21,711 nt of DNA from Promethearchaeia archaeon (GCA_046497275.1 JAWOFX010000090.1:1-21711); one strand, 5' to 3'; positions 1,961 through 19,359 are shown, numbered from the stretch's first letter. Made by a program: numbers and translations. The notes: generated by a model not told the origin, from the sequence alone.

Positions 1961-3964
1961 TTGTCTGATGATAAACAGACCAAGGAAGAGATTAGAATAG
2001 GAGTTTACGTTTGTGAATGAGGTGTTAATATTGGTGCTACTGTTGATTGCGAAGCGGTAAGGGACTTTATTGAGGGGCAACCAAACGTGGTTGTTGCGAG
2101 AACCAATAAATTTACGTGTAGTGATCCCGGTCAGCAAGTTATTAGAAATGACATTTTAGAATTAGATCTTAACAGAATAGTTGTTGCGGCCTGCACTCCT
2201 AAAATTCATGAACCAACCTATAGAGCAGTATTAATTGAAGCGGGTCTTAGTCCTTATTATTTCCAAATGGTTAATATTAGAGAGCAATGTTCTTTCGTTC
2301 ATGCTGATGATAAGGAAAATGCTACAAAAAAGGCGATAAGACTTGTCATCGGAGGGATTAATCGTGCGAGAGAATTAGAAAATATTCCTCGTATAGAAAT
2401 TCCAATCGAAAATTCAGTTCTTGTCGTTGGTGCGGGAATTGCTGGAATGAATGCTGCCCTAGATTTAGCTAGTCAAGGTATAAAGGTTTATTTGGTTGAG
2501 AAAGAGGCCACCATTGGTGGAAAAATGGCACAATTAGACCGAATATTTCCTACTGATGATTGTGGGATCTGAGTATTGGCTCCAATAATGGTAAATGCAT
2601 CAAAACATCCGAATATTGAATTAATAACATATAGTGATATAATAGAATTTAGTGGTATTACAGGCAGTTATAATGTGAGGATAAGAAAAAATCCACGATA
2701 TGTTGATCCTGATAAATGCACTGGCTGTGGATTATGTACAACTAAATGTCCGATTAGTATGCCTAATGAATTTGATAGAGGTATCGGTGAACGGGGAGCA
2801 ATATATATTCCATTTCCACAAGCAGTTCCGAAACTAGCATTAATTGATAAAGAAGCGTGTATCGAATGTAAATCATGTGAGCGTACATGTCCCGGGGAGG
2901 CTATAGATTTTGAACAAGAGCCGGAATATGTTGATATAAAGGTTGGGGCTGTTATTATTGCGACTGGTTGGGATGAATATCCTATTTGGGAGTCAAATGA
3001 ATATAAATATGGTATTTATCCTGATGTAATTACTCAAATTGAATTAGAAAGGATGCTCAGTCCAATAGGACCTACTGATGGTCATGTCCATAGAATATCT
3101 GACGGTAAAATACCCAAAAAAGTTGCGATGATACAATGTGTTGGATCCAGAACGTTGAGAGGTAATCAATATTGTTCTGCTGTGTGTTGTAATGTAGCCC
3201 TAAAGAACTCTCAATTGTTAAAGCAAGAATACCCCGAAATTGAGGTTATGATATTTTATATTGACATTCGATCGCCGGATAAAGGCAATGAAGAATATTA
3301 TCGAAAGATACGGGAAGCAAATATTTCTTTTATAAAAGGAAAGCCTGGTGATATTAAATTAAATGAAGATGGTACAATGAGATTATTCTATGATAATGCG
3401 TTATTAGATGAAGTAACACATGTGGATGTAGACCTAGTAATCTTATCTACTGGAATTATTCCATCGAAAGGTACACATCAAATAATAGAGACTATGGGAT
3501 TAAGTAGTGGCCCGAATGGATTTTTATCTGAAATTCATGGATGTTTAAAACCACAAGAAACAGATAATATTGGTATTTATATTTGTGGATGCGCTGCTGG
3601 ACCTAAAAGTATTCCATATTCAGTATCAACAGCATTAGCTGCTGCGAGTAAAGCTTCAACCCTTCTTTCTAATGATACATATAGCCAAGAATTAATCATA
3701 GCAGAAGTTAATGAAGATCTATGCATGGGTTGTCATAGATGTGAAAAAGTATGTTACTATGATGCAATTAAAGTTGGAGAGAATGATATCGCGGAAGTGA
3801 ACGAATTAAAGTGCAAAGGATGTGGCGCATGTGTAACTTCTTGCCCAGCAAGAGCTATTGATATAAAATATTATCGAGAAAGACAATTTGAACAGGAAAT
3901 CAAGGGATTAGCTATGGCTGAATCAATTCCAATTAAAGAAACGAAAGCTATAGCAGAAAAATAA
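1961..3964 (+). CDS. hdrA: Heterodisulfide reductase subunit A (FAD/Fe-S electron-bifurcating flavoprotein), selenoprotein with two in-frame UGA codons (Sec20 at 2018-2020, Sec205 at 2573-2575), 667 aa
   Basis: Reading through the TGAs gives one frame: MSDDKQTKEEIRIGVYVCE-U-GVNIGATVD (HdrA N-terminal RIGVYVCxCG motif), ACTP, EQC, VVGAGIAG FAD motif, FPTDDCGI-U-VLAPIM (HdrA FPTxDCxxC motif), four ferredoxin-type CxxCxxCxxxC motifs, QCVGSR and YCSAVCC. Track ORFs 2087-2572 and 2576-3964 are in the same frame, separated only by TGA. Confidence 0.95.
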
Positions 3965-3971
3965 ACAAGTT

Positions 3972-3977
3972 GGTGAG
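3972..3977 (+). promoter_or_regulatory. Ribosome-binding site of mvhD
   Basis: GGTGAG 5 nt before ATG at 3983, within the 18-nt hdrA-mvhD spacer. This is an archaeal-type SD motif. Confidence 0.7.
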
Positions 3978-3982
3978 TATAA

Positions 3983-4402
3983 ATGTCAAAAGATAATAAA
4001 AAGAGAAATATAATTGCTTTTGCGTGCGATAAATGAGGGTACGCAGCCGCAGATTTGACGGGCACTACGAGAAAGTCGTATGATACTGATGTGAATATAA
4101 TTCGAGTCAGATGTACAGGAAGAGTTGGAATTCATTTAATTATGGATTGTTTTTTGAACGGTGCTGACGGAGTAGCCATTATTTCTTGACAAGAAGGAGA
4201 ATGCGAATTTGGAAATGGTAATATGGTCACCTATAAACATCTATCAATGTTAAAAAAAATATTTGATCATTTAGGAATTTCTGATGAGAGAATTCAGCAA
4301 TATTTTTGTTCAGCAGCCGATGTTGAGAAATTTGTAAATTCAGTGAAAGATATTCATAAGAGGATTCACAAACTACCTCCTATATCTAAGAAAACCGAAT
4401 AG
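3983..4402 (+). CDS. mvhD: MvhD/VhuD [2Fe-2S] hydrogenase/Hdr adaptor subunit, selenoprotein with two in-frame UGA codons (Sec18 at 4034-4036, Sec69 at 4187-4189), 139 aa; missing from the ORF track
   Basis: Manual translation: MSKDNKKRNIIAFACDK-U-GYAAADLTGTTRKSYDTDVNIIRVRCTGRVGIHLIMDCFLNGADGVAIIS-U-QEGECEFGNGNMVTYKHLSMLKKIFDHLGISDERIQQYFCSAADVEKFVNSVKDIHKRIHKLPPISKKTE-TAG. This matches the MvhD pattern CxxCxYxxAD...RVxCxGR...GADGV...xCxxGxC. Confidence 0.95.
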
Positions 4403-4464
4403 GATGAATCTTTCGAATAAATTTTAGTCGTAAAGATGACAGCCTCGCAAGGGTTATTTCGGTT
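4393..4464 (+). promoter_or_regulatory. Putative SECIS element of eukaryote-like (AUGA/GA kink-turn core) type
   Basis: AUGA at 4404-4407 and GA at 4438-4439. Helix AUCUUU (4408-4413) pairs with AAAGAU (4432-4437), then CGA (4414-4416) with UCG (4428-4430). AAA at 4419-4421 in the apical part. Lower helix AACCGAA (4393-4399) pairs with UUCGGUU (4458-4464). Located immediately after the stop of a two-UGA gene. Confidence 0.8.
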
Positions 4465-4519
4465 ATGAACTTTTTCATGATATTAAGTTTAAGAATTAAA
4501 AAATGTTTAAATACGAATT

Positions 4520-6022
4520 ATGAGCAATAAGGGAAGTAATGAGATAATTTTTTCAAGGAAATTCTTCAAAGCTATTATGCAAACTTTAGATTCATATAAA
4601 GTTCGAGCGTTAATTGATGCTAAAGAAGATATCATTGAAGTAGGTATCTATTCCGAAGCTCAGTATTTCAATATCTTATTTGAATTGATTGATGAAGAGA
4701 AATTAAAATATGAATTGTATGAGTATCTTAAAGAACAAGGAGAAGCTGATATTTCTCAATTAGAAATGTTTGCAAAACATAAAGATATTCGACTTAATAA
4801 AACCCTAAGTTTGTGCTATCTTTTAGAAAGAGAAGGATTAATCAATATTGAAGAAATATATGAAAAAAGCAAAAACTCTGAAGAAGAAACTTTACAAATA
4901 TTTAAAAATTTTAATTTTTCAGTAAATAATGTTGATATTACATCGATTAAACCAATTTATGAACCAGTACAAATCATATTTGACTCAAATATATGTTCGG
5001 GTTGTGGATTGTGTGCGGGTATATGTCCCATGAATTGTATTACCATAAATAATGGTTTTGGAGAAATCGATGATGATAAATGTATACGATGTGGATTATG
5101 TTATTATGTTTGTCCTCGTACTTATCTCCCAGTAAAACTTCTCAATATATATCAAGATGATGCTTCTGAAGTTAAGAATTATAGTAAAATTGGTGTTTAT
5201 AAAGAAGCATACAGTGCAAGAACGAAAATAGATGAAATAAAAGAAGTATGTCAAGATGGAGGAGTATCAAGCACTTGTTTATATTATCTTTTAGAAAATA
5301 ACAAAATAGATCTCGCAATAGGAGCAAAGATGGGAGAGAAGTTATGGTGCCCCGAACCAACTCTAATTAAAGATAAAAAAGATATAATTGAAACTGCTGG
5401 AACCAAATATGTTAACAATCCAAATCTAAAATTGTTGAATGAGATTGATCCAGAGAAAAAAGTAGCGATAGTTGGAGTACCATGTATGATGCAAGCTCTG
5501 TTAAAGTCAAAAATATATGATATTAATATTCCCCTACTGAATAACATCCAATATCGTATTGGGATTTTTTGTATGGAGTCCTTTCCTTATGAAGAGGGAT
5601 TTTTGAAGATTTGTGAGAGATTAAATGTTGAGGTTAATGATGTAAAAAAGACCGATATCAATAAAGGAAAATTCTTTGTGTATACTAAAAATGGTGAAGA
5701 ACTCAATGTTCCAATTAAAGAAGTCACAAATTTGGCAAGAGAAGATTGTGAGGTGTGTTATGATCTCACATCTGAATCTGCAGATATTTCAATAGGGTCG
5801 ATTGGAGCTCCTTCAGGATGGAATGTTGTATTAGTAAGAAATGAAAGAGGAAAAGAATTATATGACGCTTTAATAGAAAATGGTCTCATTGAATCAAAAC
5901 CTATCGAAGAAGTCAAGCCTGGACTCCCTCTTCTCCTAAAAATTGCTAACAGTAAAAAAAATAAAAGTTCTAAACATATTTTAAAAAAGATAGAAAATGA
6001 AAAAAGATATCCGTATTATTAA
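4520..6022 (+). CDS. FrhB/FdhB-family F420-binding FAD oxidoreductase subunit with a 2x[4Fe-4S] ferredoxin domain and an extra N-terminal domain of about 150 aa
   Basis: CSGCGLCAGICP and CIRCGLCYYVCP, then FrhB-type motifs QDGGVSST, AGTKY, VAIVGVPC, IGIFCMESF, CEVCYD and DISIGSIGAPSGW. Confidence 0.88.
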   Translation: MSNKGSNEIIFSRKFFKAIMQTLDSYKVRALIDAKEDIIEVGIYSEAQYFNILFELIDEEKLKYELYEYLKEQGEADISQLEMFAKHKDIRLNKTLSLCYLLEREGLINIEEIYEKSKNSEEETLQIFKNFNFSVNNVDITSIKPIYEPVQIIFDSNICSGCGLCAGICPMNCITINNGFGEIDDDKCIRCGLCYYVCPRTYLPVKLLNIYQDDASEVKNYSKIGVYKEAYSARTKIDEIKEVCQDGGVSSTCLYYLLENNKIDLAIGAKMGEKLWCPEPTLIKDKKDIIETAGTKYVNNPNLKLLNEIDPEKKVAIVGVPCMMQALLKSKIYDINIPLLNNIQYRIGIFCMESFPYEEGFLKICERLNVEVNDVKKTDINKGKFFVYTKNGEELNVPIKEVTNLAREDCEVCYDLTSESADISIGSIGAPSGWNVVLVRNERGKELYDALIENGLIESKPIEEVKPGLPLLLKIANSKKNKSSKHILKKIENEKRYPYY

Positions 6023-8666: not shown

Positions 8667-10445
8667 ATGAGTAAAATGGAGAAAAATCGCCCTATTATTG
8701 AAGAAATTAAGGATATTTATCATTATTTGACGGAAGGAGAGCCAAATCCAGATGATGAAATTGAAGCTCAAAAAGAATTAACTGAAAAATTTGAAAAATT
8801 AAAAGAATATAATGAGTTTCCAGATAAAAAGTCCCTTATCGAAGAGATCATAGCAAAATTAAAAGAGTGGGATACATTAGAATACTGGTTTATAGAGACG
8901 CCCTTGCCTAAAAAAATAGATGAATTATTACAAATCAAAAAGGAAGAGCAAACAGAAGAATCGGAATTAGAATTAGAAGAGAAAAGTAGAAAAAAATCTG
9001 AAGTTGATATATCTGAAATTATGTCTCAATTATCTGAACAATTTAAAGGGGAAATTGATACACTAAGAGAAGAAATCGATTCACTGAAAAATGAAATTAA
9101 AAATAAAGAGGATATCATCCAGACTATTAAAAGTAAAAAACAAGTAAAAAAAATCACTCCTAAAAAAGAAGGAACCTCTAAATTGCCTCCTTTAGAAATT
9201 CATTTACCGGCCGTTAAAAAAGCAGAAGAAAAAATTATGAAAGAGGCAGGAATTAGTGAGAAACAGGTTCAACGGGGTGAAGATCAAAGTAGTATCGAAT
9301 CAGTAGAAAATGAATTGTTAGACAGAGAAACGAAGCTACAGAAAAAACAAGAACAGTATAAAGAAAAATTAGAAGTCTCTTTACAGCAATTAAAAGCTAG
9401 TAAAAAGGAACAAACAGAAGAAAGAGAAGAGTTTATTGAAGTACAAGATGAAGTTATCCTGGAAAAACCTATAGAAAAACCAGAAACTGAATCTTTTAAG
9501 GAAGTAGAAATGGAAACAACTCAAAAATCTCTAGAAGAGCATTTAGTTGAGGAGAATCTCTCAGAAACAGAAGAATATAAAATTAAGAAACCAGAACTAA
9601 AAGAAAGTGAACTGTCTCCAACTAGTAAGGAAAAACAAGAGATCCAAGAACAAGAGTTAACCACCATTCCAACAAATGAAGTGTGGGAAGAAGAAAATGT
9701 GGTGACCCCCCCTCCAACAAAGCCCACTGTGTCCACAACACCTCCTACCCCTCCTCGAAAAACTATTCCTTCAAAACCTGCCCAAACTTCCGAAAAATCT
9801 TTTTCTGAACAAGAACACCATATTCCTCAGAATATTGAACAAGAAGATATGCCAAAAACACTGCCTCCAAAAAAACCAACTATATCCACTATGGCCGTTG
9901 AGGAACCCGTCAATAAGGAACTGAAACAGATGCCAGAGAAACCTCCAAAAATGAAAAGTATTGCCGAAGTCGAAGTAGAAGAAACAGAAATGCCATCTCA
10001 AGAGCCCTTAAAAACTGATTTATTTAGTGTATTCTCTTCAATGGGGAAGAAAAATGAGTCAAAACCTAAGGAAAAACCTAATCTTGAATCGATAAAAAGC
10101 TTTATACCGGGGGGAATAGAGGAAAAAAATGTTGAAAAACCTCCTGTCGAACCTCCTAAGAAAGATATTACTCCAGAACCTCCAGAAGAGGACTATTCAG
10201 AAGAAATAGAATCAAAAAGCATTGAAGAATTACCTAAGGATAAGGATGCATTATATCAAGAATTAATTGCATTAGAGGGTAAAAGATATAGTTTAGAAAA
10301 GTCTTTTAAGGAATTAGAAAAAAGATATAATAAAGGGAGCATTGACGAGCATGAATTTAAATCCGAGGGAGAAAAATTAAAAGATAGTTTAAACGAAATC
10401 ACTAGAAGAATTACTAACATACGAAGAATAGTAGCGAGTATGTAA
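8667..10445 (+). CDS. Hypothetical 592-aa acidic protein: helical N-terminus, coiled coil, long Glu/Lys/Pro-rich low-complexity linker, helical C-terminal domain
   Basis: Long open frame with typical purine-rich codon usage. Composition seen directly. No family recognised with confidence. Confidence 0.85.
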   Translation: MSKMEKNRPIIEEIKDIYHYLTEGEPNPDDEIEAQKELTEKFEKLKEYNEFPDKKSLIEEIIAKLKEWDTLEYWFIETPLPKKIDELLQIKKEEQTEESELELEEKSRKKSEVDISEIMSQLSEQFKGEIDTLREEIDSLKNEIKNKEDIIQTIKSKKQVKKITPKKEGTSKLPPLEIHLPAVKKAEEKIMKEAGISEKQVQRGEDQSSIESVENELLDRETKLQKKQEQYKEKLEVSLQQLKASKKEQTEEREEFIEVQDEVILEKPIEKPETESFKEVEMETTQKSLEEHLVEENLSETEEYKIKKPELKESELSPTSKEKQEIQEQELTTIPTNEVWEEENVVTPPPTKPTVSTTPPTPPRKTIPSKPAQTSEKSFSEQEHHIPQNIEQEDMPKTLPPKKPTISTMAVEEPVNKELKQMPEKPPKMKSIAEVEVEETEMPSQEPLKTDLFSVFSSMGKKNESKPKEKPNLESIKSFIPGGIEEKNVEKPPVEPPKKDITPEPPEEDYSEEIESKSIEELPKDKDALYQELIALEGKRYSLEKSFKELEKRYNKGSIDEHEFKSEGEKLKDSLNEITRRITNIRRIVASM

Positions 10446-16477: not shown

Positions 16478-17188
16478 TTAGTAGAGAAGAATTATTCTTA
16501 TCGCAATAAAGAAAATAACTTGAATTACGACAAACCAGGGACTATGAGGGCTTTCTTCTAATTTAATCCTTTCTTCTTTAGGAATTAATAAGAAAGTTAA
16601 TGCAAATAGAAAGGATATTGTAAACCATGCGATATAGTTTTGAATTGGGATATTATAAGGATTGCTAGTTACTGTCCAAGTCCAATAATCTAATCCAACT
16701 GCCGCTGGCTCTAATATAAAATCAAATAGTGTCGCCAAACTAGCAGTTAAAACTGCGATCAAGATAATATTTATCTTTATACTTATTTCTAAATTAAATA
16801 ATTCCTTAACTAACCATTCTGAAAATAATACTAATGAAAAAATAATGAATACCCAATTCAGACCAATTACAACTGGAACATTTAATAACTTAAGTCCAAG
16901 TCCATCACCATAATAGTAGGGACCAAAAATAAAACCTGTTGAAGCGCCAATAACCTCTAAAGAAAAGGTCACTATATACGCTATTAATATCCATGCGACA
17001 ACATATTTATATTTTAAACTTTTATAAATAGCCCAAATACCAGAAATCAACAATACATAGGGAGTCAACACAACCATGAACGGATAAGTCAAGTCCCATA
17101 CATGCCAAATAATTCCTACTATGAAAAATATAAATAAAATTAGCGTTTGAAATTTCCAGTCTGATAATTTTATGTTTTTTTTATTCAT
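16478..17188 (-). CDS. cruF: CruF-like carotenoid 1,2-hydratase (carotenoid biosynthesis membrane protein, DUF422 type)
   Basis: EVIGASTGFIFGPYYYG, VPVVIGLNW, LFDFILEPAA and IPIQNYIAW. Start reassigned to ATG 17188, which has GGTGAG 4 nt upstream and lies 1 nt after the desaturase stop. The track start at 17212 overlaps the upstream gene. Confidence 0.82.
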   Translation of the reverse strand: MNKKNIKLSDWKFQTLILFIFFIVGIIWHVWDLTYPFMVVLTPYVLLISGIWAIYKSLKYKYVVAWILIAYIVTFSLEVIGASTGFIFGPYYYGDGLGLKLLNVPVVIGLNWVFIIFSLVLFSEWLVKELFNLEISIKINIILIAVLTASLATLFDFILEPAAVGLDYWTWTVTSNPYNIPIQNYIAWFTISFLFALTFLLIPKEERIKLEESPHSPWFVVIQVIFFIAIRIILLY

Positions 17189-17189
17189 T

Positions 17190-18671
17190 TTACTCACCTG
17201 AATATTTATCAACTAATTCAGCACAAATTTTACCTGATAATAACACAAGAGGCATTCCGCCACCTGGATGAGCGCTCCCTCCACAAAAATATAATCCTTT
17301 TATATCTTTACTCCTATTTCTATGACGCAGAAATGCAGCTTTCGTTGTATTGGAACTTATTCCATATAAACTTCCATGCGTTGAACTTGTTCGTTTTTGT
17401 ATATCAGGCGGGGTAAGAATTCCCTCGGTCACGATATGAGATTTTATGTCTACCCCTAAACGATTGGATAAAAGATTTATAGCTGCTTGTCTTGCTTTGG
17501 AAACTAGTAACTCCCAATCTTGATTATCATCTGCGGGGGCATTCAAAAGTACAAACCAATTTTCGCAATCTTTCGGTGCATCAGAAGGTGTTAATTTTGA
17601 AGTTATATTCACATAGACCGTTGGTTCTTTCGGCATAGTTTTATCTTCAAACATAGCTCGAAATTCAGCGGGGTAATCTGATGAAAAGAAGATATTATTC
17701 ACAGATAACTCTTCAAAAATTCGGTTAATGCCCCAATAAAATACAATACCGCTTGAACTAGGTTCAAGTTTTCTGTATCTTCTTGCTTTTTTTGCATCTG
17801 GTAATTTGAGTAGGTTCTCATAGGTATAGAGAACATCAGCATCAGATATTACTACATCATAATCTTTAAACCCCGATTCTAGCGTAATTCCACTTATTTT
17901 CTTTTTTTTCATGTTAATCTTTTTGACTTTCTCTCCAAAATAGAATTGAACACCTAAATCTTCTGCCGCTTTATGTAGTTTTTTGGGAATTTCATATATC
18001 CCCTCTTTTATTCCATAACCACCACCATTGTATTCAACAAATGGTATAATTAACATTGTTGCTGGAGTTTGATATGGATCTGATCCATTATAAGTTGCAT
18101 ATCTGTTAAAAAGCTGAATTAAACGAGGGTCTTCAAAAAATTTTGAGTTAATTTTATTTAATGTGCTAAATGGATGGATTCCCGCGAAACGTATCAATTT
18201 AGAAAGCGTAGATAACTTCAATAACGTGCGAACTTCATGAATAGGTTTTGTGAGAAATAACTCTCCTCCCAGTTTGTATGCTTTTTCTGCTTCTTTCAAG
18301 TATTTTTTCAAAGATTTTTGACTACCTTCATATATCTTTTTTAGTTCAGTCCCGAATTTTTCCAAGTCGGACCAAGCTTTAAGATAACTGCCATCTGAGA
18401 GATAATATGTACAGATTTCTTTCAATTTGATTATTGTAAGTTCCTGATCAATTTCTTTTCCCGCAGTTTGAAAGACATCCTCAAAAACCCACGGCATAGT
18501 TACTAATGAGGGTCCGATGTCAAACCGATATCCATCCAGATATTCTTCAGCTGCTTTACCGCCGGGAAAGGATTGAGCTTCATATACATATACATCCCAA
18601 CCTATTGATTTTAAATATATCGATGCTGATAATCCTCCCAGTCCAGCTCCAACGATTGCAGCTTTATTCAT
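17190..18671 (-). CDS. crtD: Phytoene-desaturase-family flavoprotein, most like 1-hydroxycarotenoid 3,4-desaturase CrtD
   Basis: FAD motif IVGAGLGG, YRFDIGPSLVTMP, QLFNRYATYNGSDPY, GSLYGISSN..AAFLRH and LYFCGGSAHPGGGMPL. These motifs recall bacterial CrtD more than CrtI (judged from memory). Confidence 0.8.
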   Translation of the reverse strand: MNKAAIVGAGLGGLSASIYLKSIGWDVYVYEAQSFPGGKAAEEYLDGYRFDIGPSLVTMPWVFEDVFQTAGKEIDQELTIIKLKEICTYYLSDGSYLKAWSDLEKFGTELKKIYEGSQKSLKKYLKEAEKAYKLGGELFLTKPIHEVRTLLKLSTLSKLIRFAGIHPFSTLNKINSKFFEDPRLIQLFNRYATYNGSDPYQTPATMLIIPFVEYNGGGYGIKEGIYEIPKKLHKAAEDLGVQFYFGEKVKKINMKKKKISGITLESGFKDYDVVISDADVLYTYENLLKLPDAKKARRYRKLEPSSSGIVFYWGINRIFEELSVNNIFFSSDYPAEFRAMFEDKTMPKEPTVYVNITSKLTPSDAPKDCENWFVLLNAPADDNQDWELLVSKARQAAINLLSNRLGVDIKSHIVTEGILTPPDIQKRTSSTHGSLYGISSNTTKAAFLRHRNRSKDIKGLYFCGGSAHPGGGMPLVLLSGKICAELVDKYSGE

Positions 18672-18672
18672 A

Positions 18673-19359
18673 TTATTTAGCCCCTTTTATGCTAAATCTT
18701 TCTCTAAAGAGAAAATAAAACAACATAGAAAGACTGATAAGAGAAAAGCTATAAAAGAAATCTTCAATTGGAATAGAGATCACTCTGAATCCAATGATCG
18801 CATCCGGATTATATAAAACAATTGGTAAATAAGTAAATATACCATTAAAGATTAAAAAAGGAATATAAGTCAGGATTAATGCGACTAAAGTCCATTTTGA
18901 AGTGAATTTTTCATATCCAAATAAACTAATTAAAAGCATTGTTATTAAAAATACTATTCCCATTAATACTGTATATCCTTTTTTAAAAAAGAATATTAAA
19001 GGTAAAATCCCTATTAATCCGATAGTAAAGAAAATATATTTGGAAAACCTTAGTTTTTTATCTTTTGTATATGCTCTAACACATTCATAGATGAAAATTG
19101 TAGCGTATGGAACAGCAATGAAAAAAACCCACTCACCGATAGGTAACCCCAATATCTTTAAAGTCCCTGCATAAATTTCCGAAAAAGACCAATGACCTAG
19201 TTCTGTTACTATCACATCCCAAATTATAAATGTTGTGCTAACAACAAGCATGCTCAATAACAATGGAGGCCATCTACGCCAAAAAGCCACCTTTTTATCA
19301 AAGGATAATAGCAAAGGACCTATTATCACCGCGAAATTTAACCAAAAATATAGGTTCAT
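18673..19359 (-). CDS. crtY: Membrane-type lycopene cyclase (two fused CrtYc/Yd-like domains)
   Basis: Two repeats of the cyclase domain: WDVIVTELGHWSF...LGLPIGEWVFF and FNGIFTYLPIVLYN...SIPIEDFFYSF. Stop is 1 nt from the desaturase ATG. Confidence 0.85.
   Translation of the reverse strand: MNLYFWLNFAVIIGPLLLSFDKKVAFWRRWPPLLLSMLVVSTTFIIWDVIVTELGHWSFSEIYAGTLKILGLPIGEWVFFIAVPYATIFIYECVRAYTKDKKLRFSKYIFFTIGLIGILPLIFFFKKGYTVLMGIVFLITMLLISLFGYEKFTSKWTLVALILTYIPFLIFNGIFTYLPIVLYNPDAIIGFRVISIPIEDFFYSFSLISLSMLFYFLFRERFSIKGAK

Follow-up and report, generated by a model that had tools for sequence, protein, structure and literature searches.

How would an HdrA-MvhD pair work with an FrhB-like protein when no HdrBC, hydrogenase or formate dehydrogenase subunit is encoded beside them? 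The question is raised by a stretch of 21,711 nucleotides from a Promethearchaeia archaeon (GCA_046497275.1, JAWOFX010000090.1:1-21711), which we analysed over its full length and refer to as the window; it is a complete contig (C24, 21.7 kb) of a 188-contig, 3.85-Mb genome with a completeness of 98.9%. An earlier note, made from the sequence alone, pointed to three genes, hdrA, mvhD and an frhB-like gene, that lie adjacent on the + strand within 1961-6022, and proposed that they encode an F420H2-linked bifurcating complex. This proposal holds in part: the module is real and syntenic and the core of the FrhB-like protein is nearest to F420-reactive FrhB, but bifurcation requires a third, high-potential partner and the trio itself supplies none. 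We put at roughly 0.75 the probability that this HdrA-MvhD pair has an F420-reactive working partner in the FrhB-type protein. The features of the locus, including the TGA codons read as selenocysteine (Sec), are as follows (aa, amino acids):

1961-3964, + strand: hdrA, 667 aa, with a TTG start after a GGGG Shine-Dalgarno-like motif and TGA at codons 20 and 204
2018-2020, + strand: Sec codon 20 of hdrA
2570-2572, + strand: Sec codon 204 of hdrA, the canonical site
3983-4402, + strand: mvhD/vhuD, coding for the [2Fe-2S] connector subunit of 139 aa; TGA stands at codons 18 and 69
4034-4036, + strand: Sec codon 18 of mvhD
4187-4189, + strand: Sec codon 69 of mvhD
4393-4464, + strand: RNA structure of the lokiSECIS type, overlapping the mvhD stop codon
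4520-6022, + strand: frhB-like gene, 500 aa, with Pfam domains FrhB_FdhB_N, FrhB_FdhB_C and Fer4

Family searches and Pfam scans agree with the earlier note that the three genes are co-oriented and that the window holds no hdrB, hdrC, mvhA/G or fdhA. The family searches, run over the whole genome, gave no CCG/HdrB, NiFe large-subunit or molybdopterin match on this contig, and the Pfam scans found none of hdrB/C, mvhA/G and fdhA among the remaining open reading frames (ORFs) of the window. Since the window is a single contig, the absence of a gene from it says little about the genome.

Linkage and distribution of the three genes

We identified 14 orthologous loci, all in Promethearchaeota/Lokiarchaeia-type metagenome-assembled genomes (MAGs), with identities of 57-73% for FrhB and 73-85% for HdrA. 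The order seryl-tRNA synthetase (SerRS), a 61-aa ORF, hdrA, mvhD, frhB and the ribosomal protein genes S13, S4 and S11 is kept in every one of them (14/14). Weighing against a functional reading of this order, the SerRS and S13-S4-S11 flanks are just as syntenic across the same loci, so that synteny among these loci alone is weak evidence, and we therefore examined independent contexts. Directly upstream of frhB we again found hdrA-mvhD in 6/6 loci that come from other families or, in other genera, represent the paralogous type; the flanks of these loci differ. Across all loci examined the triad is thus adjacent in 20/20, although the earlier note had allowed that the frhB-like gene might prove non-syntenic in relatives.

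Further, 301 genomes of the phylum were sampled. They include 68 from the family to which the window belongs, of which 62 have the 500-aa FrhB type, mostly in two copies; elsewhere in the sample it is confined to three other families. In the six genomes of the family that have no such FrhB, the best HdrA match reaches only 43-46% identity, as against 69-85% for orthologs, indicating that the orthologous HdrA is absent along with FrhB. A SerRS search of these FrhB-less genomes (E ≤ 1e-60) gave no match, so the locus could not be anchored by SerRS and HdrA identity was used instead.

The same association is seen within the genome itself. Of its eight FrhB paralogs, six are located downstream of one of the 12 mvhD genes at a distance of no more than 4 kb, and the chance rate for an FrhB paralog to lie so near an mvhD gene is roughly estimated at 2-3% per gene. 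The closest paralogs of HdrA (51%) and of FrhB (41%) both belong to one second triad, on contig C109, which suggests that the genes were duplicated as a block. Taken together, the recurrent gene arrangement makes a functional coupling of hdrA, mvhD and the frhB-like gene well supported. The second triad opens a larger cluster (C109:10792-20709) that runs HdrA(Sec), MvhD(Sec), a winged-helix FrhB of 500 aa, an FrhB of 369 aa, an HdrD-like protein (Fer4 plus two CCG domains, 423 aa), a tandem HdrA of 992 aa and MvhD. Near it, on the opposite strand, lie a further FrhB (496 aa) and a small GTPase resembling RagA/Gtr1.

The selenoprotein pair and the FrhB-like protein

HdrA residues 11-652 align to residues 4-651 of the solved chain 9sfi_A (E = 2e-213), and over the same residues the matches to 9sfi_A, 8rvu_a and 5odc_A range from about 1e-206 to 1e-213. 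The protein has the complete four-domain architecture with the FAD-binding GxGxxG and Fe-S Cys motifs, and it retains the cluster motif of the thioredoxin-reductase domain that feeds HdrC in solved complexes. Its NCBIfam scores of 826, 607 and 602 bits fall below the equivalog cut-offs (1100 for HdrA2, 1300 and 1400 for HdrA), these models spanning 762-777 positions that include an MvhD-like end which is a separate gene at this locus. MvhD matches Pfam FlpD (PF02662) at 134 bits against a cut-off of 22.3, and its two TGA codons lie 51 codons apart, as the VhuD pattern (about 50) expects; its NCBIfam VhuD score of 129 is under the cut-off of 215. The best NCBIfam match to both proteins is HdrA2 of Methanosarcina acetivorans (826 and 121 bits), a fusion that is colinear with HdrA plus MvhD here. 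HdrA2B2C2 is described as bifurcating and as ferredoxin- and F420H2-dependent (PMC5296606). HdrA2 differs from the present pair in being fused and encoded with hdrB2C2 and without an FrhB subunit, and the scores obtained here remain below the HdrA2 cut-off.

All four TGA codons are conserved in position in 14/14 orthologous loci. In alignments with solved HdrA, Sec20 falls within the N-terminal C-x-C-G motif, and Sec204 corresponds, with support from published text, to the canonical ligand for the other protomer's N-terminal cluster. The selenolates of Sec20 and Sec204 may thus both ligate one [4Fe-4S] cluster on the low-potential branch.

The structure overlapping the mvhD stop codon has the parts of a Sec insertion sequence (SECIS). 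An outer stem and an AUGA core are joined by a helix of roughly 9 bp with an A-rich apical loop, and there are also a 3' GA and a second, small hairpin. An alignment of 15 loci gave 16 consensus pairs with compensatory changes in 12, and it was by this alignment that the element was recognised, as an Rfam scan of the window at the gathering threshold gave no match. The element agrees with lokiSECIS in its site just 3' of vhuD, its AUGA...GA core, the length of its stem (about 9 bp), its A-rich loop and its covariation. Presumably this one SECIS serves all four UGA codons of hdrA-mvhD. ARAGORN, which recovered only 13-19 tRNAs in this MAG, did not find tRNA-Sec, while two candidates lie just over the cut-off of Rfam RF01852.

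A Sec-containing HdrA-VhuD pair with a shared lokiSECIS is already on record, in the passages searched of Mariotti et al. (2016, PMC4989117), where lokiSECIS is seen only downstream of VhuD and is proposed to serve both HdrA and VhuD. The Lokiarchaeota pairs described in those passages have the same multi-Sec HdrA including the canonical site, the same two-Sec VhuD, the same very short intergenic gap (18 nt here, from the hdrA stop to the mvhD start) and the same single SECIS just after vhuD. The term 'FrhB' has 0 occurrences in these passages, and the partner gene and its conservation are what we add here.

The FrhB-like protein comprises an N-terminal helical and winged-helix region (residues ~10-140), a 2x[4Fe-4S] ferredoxin domain (~150-205), an F420-reductase (FrhB) core (224-492) and a C-terminal tail. 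The core shares about 45% identity (212 bits) with FrhB of the Frh hydrogenase (3zfs_C), and residues 152-488 match the F420-reducing subunits 8riu_B (of carbon monoxide dehydrogenase, CODH) and 8rja_E (of Fwd) from Ca. Ethanoperedens. Against NCBIfam models the protein scores 287 bits for PRK09325, over the cut-off of 269, but only 255 bits for the frhB equivalog TIGR03289, under the cut-off of 331.5, which sets it apart from FrhB proper. Because it falls below this equivalog cut-off and no FrhA was found in the genome, we read it as an F420-reductase-type module rather than a hydrogenase subunit. An AlphaFold2 model (pLDDT 83) gave Foldseek TM scores of 0.84 to 8riu_B and 0.92 to FrhB 9r51_B, and the structural ranking agrees with the ranking by sequence. 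All eight ferredoxin-domain cysteines and four core cysteines (C322, C351, C410 and C413) are invariant in 16 homologs. With both FrhB/FdhB domains, the core Cys ligands and a fold matching F420-reactive members, the protein thus belongs to the FrhB/FdhB family. F420 binding and turnover are probable given the identity of its core to FrhB and the genes for F420 biosynthesis and Mtd described below.

Pfam matches to the N-terminal domain are all sub-threshold. In the AlphaFold2 model residues ~58-140 form a winged helix, with Z scores of 8-9 to MecI, MarR and a winged-helix domain of ESCRT-II, and this domain is acidic in 16/16 homologs (pI, isoelectric point, 4.4-5.9). For so acidic a domain we judged a role as a DNA-binding regulator unlikely. 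When 1.84 billion proteins were searched with a profile of the N-terminal domain, only 29 representatives matched, all of them fragments or FrhB proteins of ~480-500 aa, and by this search the winged-helix/FrhB fusion is lineage-specific. The tail (residues 486-500) is basic and conserved, with Arg496, Pro498 and the final Tyr500 nearly invariant in full-length homologs, and may be a docking peptide.

Genome context and possible electron paths

The earlier note had allowed that the genome might lack F420 synthesis, which would have spoken against an F420-linked complex. Instead, the genome encodes CofH (over its cut-off) with a CofG-like neighbour, CofD and two copies of CofE, as well as the F420-dependent Mtd, together with a Mer-like gene under its cut-off. 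The Frh-type large subunit (FrhA) was not found in a search of the whole genome, which returned only two NiFe large subunits, both in vhu/mvhG-A-hdrC-hdrB clusters (C44:69883-74229 and C100:67606-71840) that have neither hdrA nor mvhD. The earlier description of a module without HdrBC or hydrogenase is therefore correct for the locus and incorrect for the genome: lack of HdrBC characterises the locus and not the organism. This genome clearly encodes its HdrA-MvhD cores separately from its HdrCB/hydrogenase modules, and HdrBC partners could be supplied in trans from clusters of this kind. In methanogens, too, hdrA is commonly unlinked to hdrBC. A third hdrC-hdrB pair adjoins another hdrA, and the totals are 12 FlpD/MvhD matches (12 HdrA-MvhD sets), eight FrhB paralogs and about 24 CCG-domain proteins. 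Given that F420 is made, that Mtd is present and Frh was not found, and that most FrhB genes stand beside one of these many mvhD genes, the HdrA-MvhD-FrhB units are the obvious candidates for a linker.

Several details of these clusters deserve mention in their own right. The C44 cluster carries a Sec-containing VhuU-like ORF, with an in-frame TGA in the motif D-C-U-L-S-C-A-A-H, between vhuA and hdrC. The small-subunit genes of the C44 and C100 clusters are unusually long (443 and 492 aa). Beside hdrC-hdrB, at C100:39017-50977, a double-HdrA gene of ~1000 aa plus an MvhD-containing gene occurs as three tandem repeats, and an FrhB lies 3.6 kb downstream.

The closest functional precedent is the Elp-Hdr complex of Methanothermobacter marburgensis (ElpABC-HdrABC, PDB 8RVU), in which an FrhB-family subunit oxidises F420H2 and electrons travel by way of Fe-S clusters and an MvhD homolog to HdrA's bifurcating FAD (PMC12350162). 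As here, the donor module is encoded apart from hdrBC. An FdhB-MvhD-HdrA electron path is found in the Fdh-Hdr-Fmd supercomplex of Methanospirillum hungatei (PDB 7BKB), for which F420H2-dependent bifurcation activity has been reported (cited in PMC12350162). The present system, from a Lokiarchaeia-type Asgard archaeon, differs in that its F420 subunit is of the FrhB/F420-reductase clade rather than the FdhB/ElpB clade, carries an N-terminal winged-helix and ferredoxin domain and has no ElpA or catalytic FdhA subunit beside it, and in that its HdrA and MvhD are selenoproteins. The locus thus has the MvhD homolog of an Elp/Fdh-type donor arm and neither an FdhB/ElpB-clade subunit nor an FdhA/ElpA-like gene; the FrhB-like protein is no member of that family, though it may work like such an arm. 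In structure and architecture, residues 150-490 are best matched by two F420-reductase modules of Ca. Ethanoperedens thermophilum, that of CODH (zeta subunit, 8RIU_B) and that of Fwd (FwdI, 8RJA_E). These likewise combine a 2x[4Fe-4S] ferredoxin domain with an FAD/[4Fe-4S] F420-reductase domain, and each is anchored to its partner by the ferredoxin domain at its N-terminus (PMC11493965). In those modules the partner is CODH or Fwd, not HdrA-MvhD, and there is no winged-helix domain. On account of the Elp-Hdr path and of this anchoring by the ferredoxin domain, we interpret the FrhB-like protein as an F420 arm on the HdrA-MvhD core.

In the mechanism that we propose, HdrA (FAD, six Fe-S clusters and two Sec) and MvhD ([2Fe-2S] and two Sec) would form the usual bifurcating core with its connector, and the 500-aa FrhB-type protein would be a plug-in F420 oxidoreductase arm resembling ElpB and FdhB in the Elp-Hdr and Fdh-Hdr complexes. 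F420H2 would pass a hydride to the FAD of the FrhB-type protein. From there electrons would cross the protein's core [4Fe-4S] cluster and both clusters in the ferredoxin domain, reach HdrA/MvhD and finally arrive at the bifurcating FAD, or they would take the opposite course. The acidic winged-helix domain could serve as a docking or scaffold element that replaces the missing ElpA/FdhA subunit. The high-potential branch, with a presumed disulfide as substrate, would be HdrC-HdrB acting in trans from one of the vhu/mvhG-A-hdrC-hdrB clusters without hdrA and mvhD of their own, which we regard as its most economical source; F420H2 and H2 would then be alternative donors to one kind of core. This whole mechanism, HdrBC in trans included, is tentative, and we rate it somewhat below an even chance.

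Several observations weigh against the proposed arm and its partner in trans. The spacer between mvhD and the frhB-like gene is 117 nt long, AT-rich 3' of the SECIS and without an obvious Shine-Dalgarno motif, and it may hold a promoter of the gene's own. The FdhB/ElpB chains (8rvu_E, 9t1s_M and 7bkb_E) score only ~65 bits against the FrhB-like protein, compared with 212 for FrhB, and as the protein lies outside their clade its docking geometry may differ; no ElpA/FdhA-like subunit is found at the locus. The FrhB family also takes in enzymes that do not use F420, such as HCAR (5dqr), which scores 48 bits here. A complex prediction, made from alignments of HdrA residues 206-667 and the full FrhB-like protein, counts neither for nor against the arm, its scores being 0.04 and 0.00 against a mark of 0.32. 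Finally, hdrB/C are linked to the triad in 0/14 orthologous loci, and the partner in trans is a pure inference on our part.

The absence of hdrBC from every orthologous locus would also fit the main rival explanation, a stand-alone ferredoxin:F420 oxidoreductase that does not bifurcate, and a trio that truly stood alone would be more simply explained in this way. Reduced ferredoxin would pass electrons through the HdrA ferredoxin domains, MvhD and FrhB to F420, providing F420H2 for Mtd/Mer in a tetrahydromethanopterin (H4MPT) Wood-Ljungdahl pathway. An organism that makes F420 and has Mtd, and in which no Frh was found, needs some such route to F420H2, and the same model has been put forward for frhB-hdrA-mvhD in Korarchaeia (PMC10667645). 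We nevertheless consider it unlikely, though a serious contender, as a complete bifurcating HdrA is kept at high identity among the orthologs and at the cost of selenium dependence, the HdrC-feeding cluster motif is retained beyond the needs of a simple ferredoxin:F420 wire, and on C109 the sister triad shares its cluster with a gene for an HdrD-like CCG protein. The trio might instead substitute for an F420-reducing hydrogenase, with Vhu/Mvh docking on MvhD in trans and the FrhB-type protein as acceptor arm, so that H2 would reduce F420 and possibly, by bifurcation, ferredoxin as well, F420 taking the place of HdrBC as the higher-potential acceptor. The only NiFe hydrogenases found are indeed the two of Vhu/Mvh type, in clusters that lack mvhD and hdrA and one of which has the Sec-containing VhuU-like ORF, in a genome where F420 is in use and FrhA was not found. 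However, FdhB/ElpB and MvhAG share one donor-arm site in all solved complexes (PMC12350162), so that competition rather than co-binding is expected, and by our own estimate from standard potentials the gap between H2, F420 and ferredoxin is small; we regard this substitution as improbable. Its strictest form, a self-contained and HdrBC-independent trio to which Vhu/Mvh docks in trans and in which H2 reduces F420 and ferredoxin together, seems to us more doubtful again. If true, the trio would fill the place of the F420-reducing hydrogenase that is missing in Lokiarchaeia, and its flavin-based bifurcation would be of a new type, with F420 in place of heterodisulfide as the high-potential acceptor; the lineage-specific winged-helix domain would create a new docking site.

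It is also conceivable that the FrhB-like protein is no subunit of the HdrA-MvhD complex at all but an independent F420 enzyme, or a redox-sensing regulator with a DNA-binding winged helix. The room for a promoter in the 117-nt gap, the likeness of the N-terminal fold to MarR and MecI and the equal synteny of the housekeeping flanks in close relatives would be in keeping with this. Yet the genes stand side by side again and again in contexts independent of one another, across two paralogous lineages and several families, and co-absence matches this; the winged-helix domain is acidic in all homologs and, in the profile search, was found only fused to this FrhB type, making such a separate role very improbable.

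The earlier idea is not new in kind. Besides Elp-Hdr, which has been demonstrated (PMC12350162), triads of frhB-hdrA-mvhD have been predicted from genomes in Korarchaeia (PMC10667645), and clusters of HdrA with FdhB only in ANME-1 (PMC9012536). These clusters have the same three-component content and the same F420 link to HdrA without catalytic FdhA or hydrogenase; they come from other phyla, and no winged-helix fusion or Sec is reported there. We found no description of the triad in Lokiarchaeia, or of the winged-helix FrhB fusion, in the open-access literature. The general principle of an Hdr with an F420 arm of the FrhB family has been established for methanogens; the triad described here is a lineage-specific variant of it, and the gain lies in physiology and diversity rather than in a new mechanism. 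Models in which eukaryotes arose through an exchange of hydrogen and electrons between partners give Asgard archaea a central place, and in Lokiarchaeia the HdrA-MvhD-FrhB units are candidates for connecting the pools of F420, ferredoxin, H2 and thiol/disulfide. The triad, conserved and made up of two selenoproteins and the winged-helix FrhB, also gives expression work or native purification a defined target of three proteins.

Flanking genes and other features of the window

On the 5' side the triad is flanked by the divergent SerRS gene and the conserved 61-aa ORF, and on the 3' side by the genes for ribosomal proteins S13, S4 and S11. The 61-aa ORF (1492-1677, - strand) lies between SerRS and hdrA, and its position is kept, with 58-78% identity, in the orthologous loci in which the upstream flank is covered. 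It has a sub-threshold match to a PaaX-type helix-turn-helix (E = 0.003) and may encode a small protein that regulates either the hdrA operon or SerRS. A 592-aa ORF (8667-10445, + strand) without a Pfam match lies between the ribosomal-protein genes and NAD synthase. Finally, the window holds a carotenoid-like gene trio (16478-19359, - strand) that encodes a lycopene-cyclase domain protein, an amine-oxidase/CrtD-like desaturase and a protein of the Caroten_synth family, genes that were unexpected beside such an anaerobic-type redox gene set.

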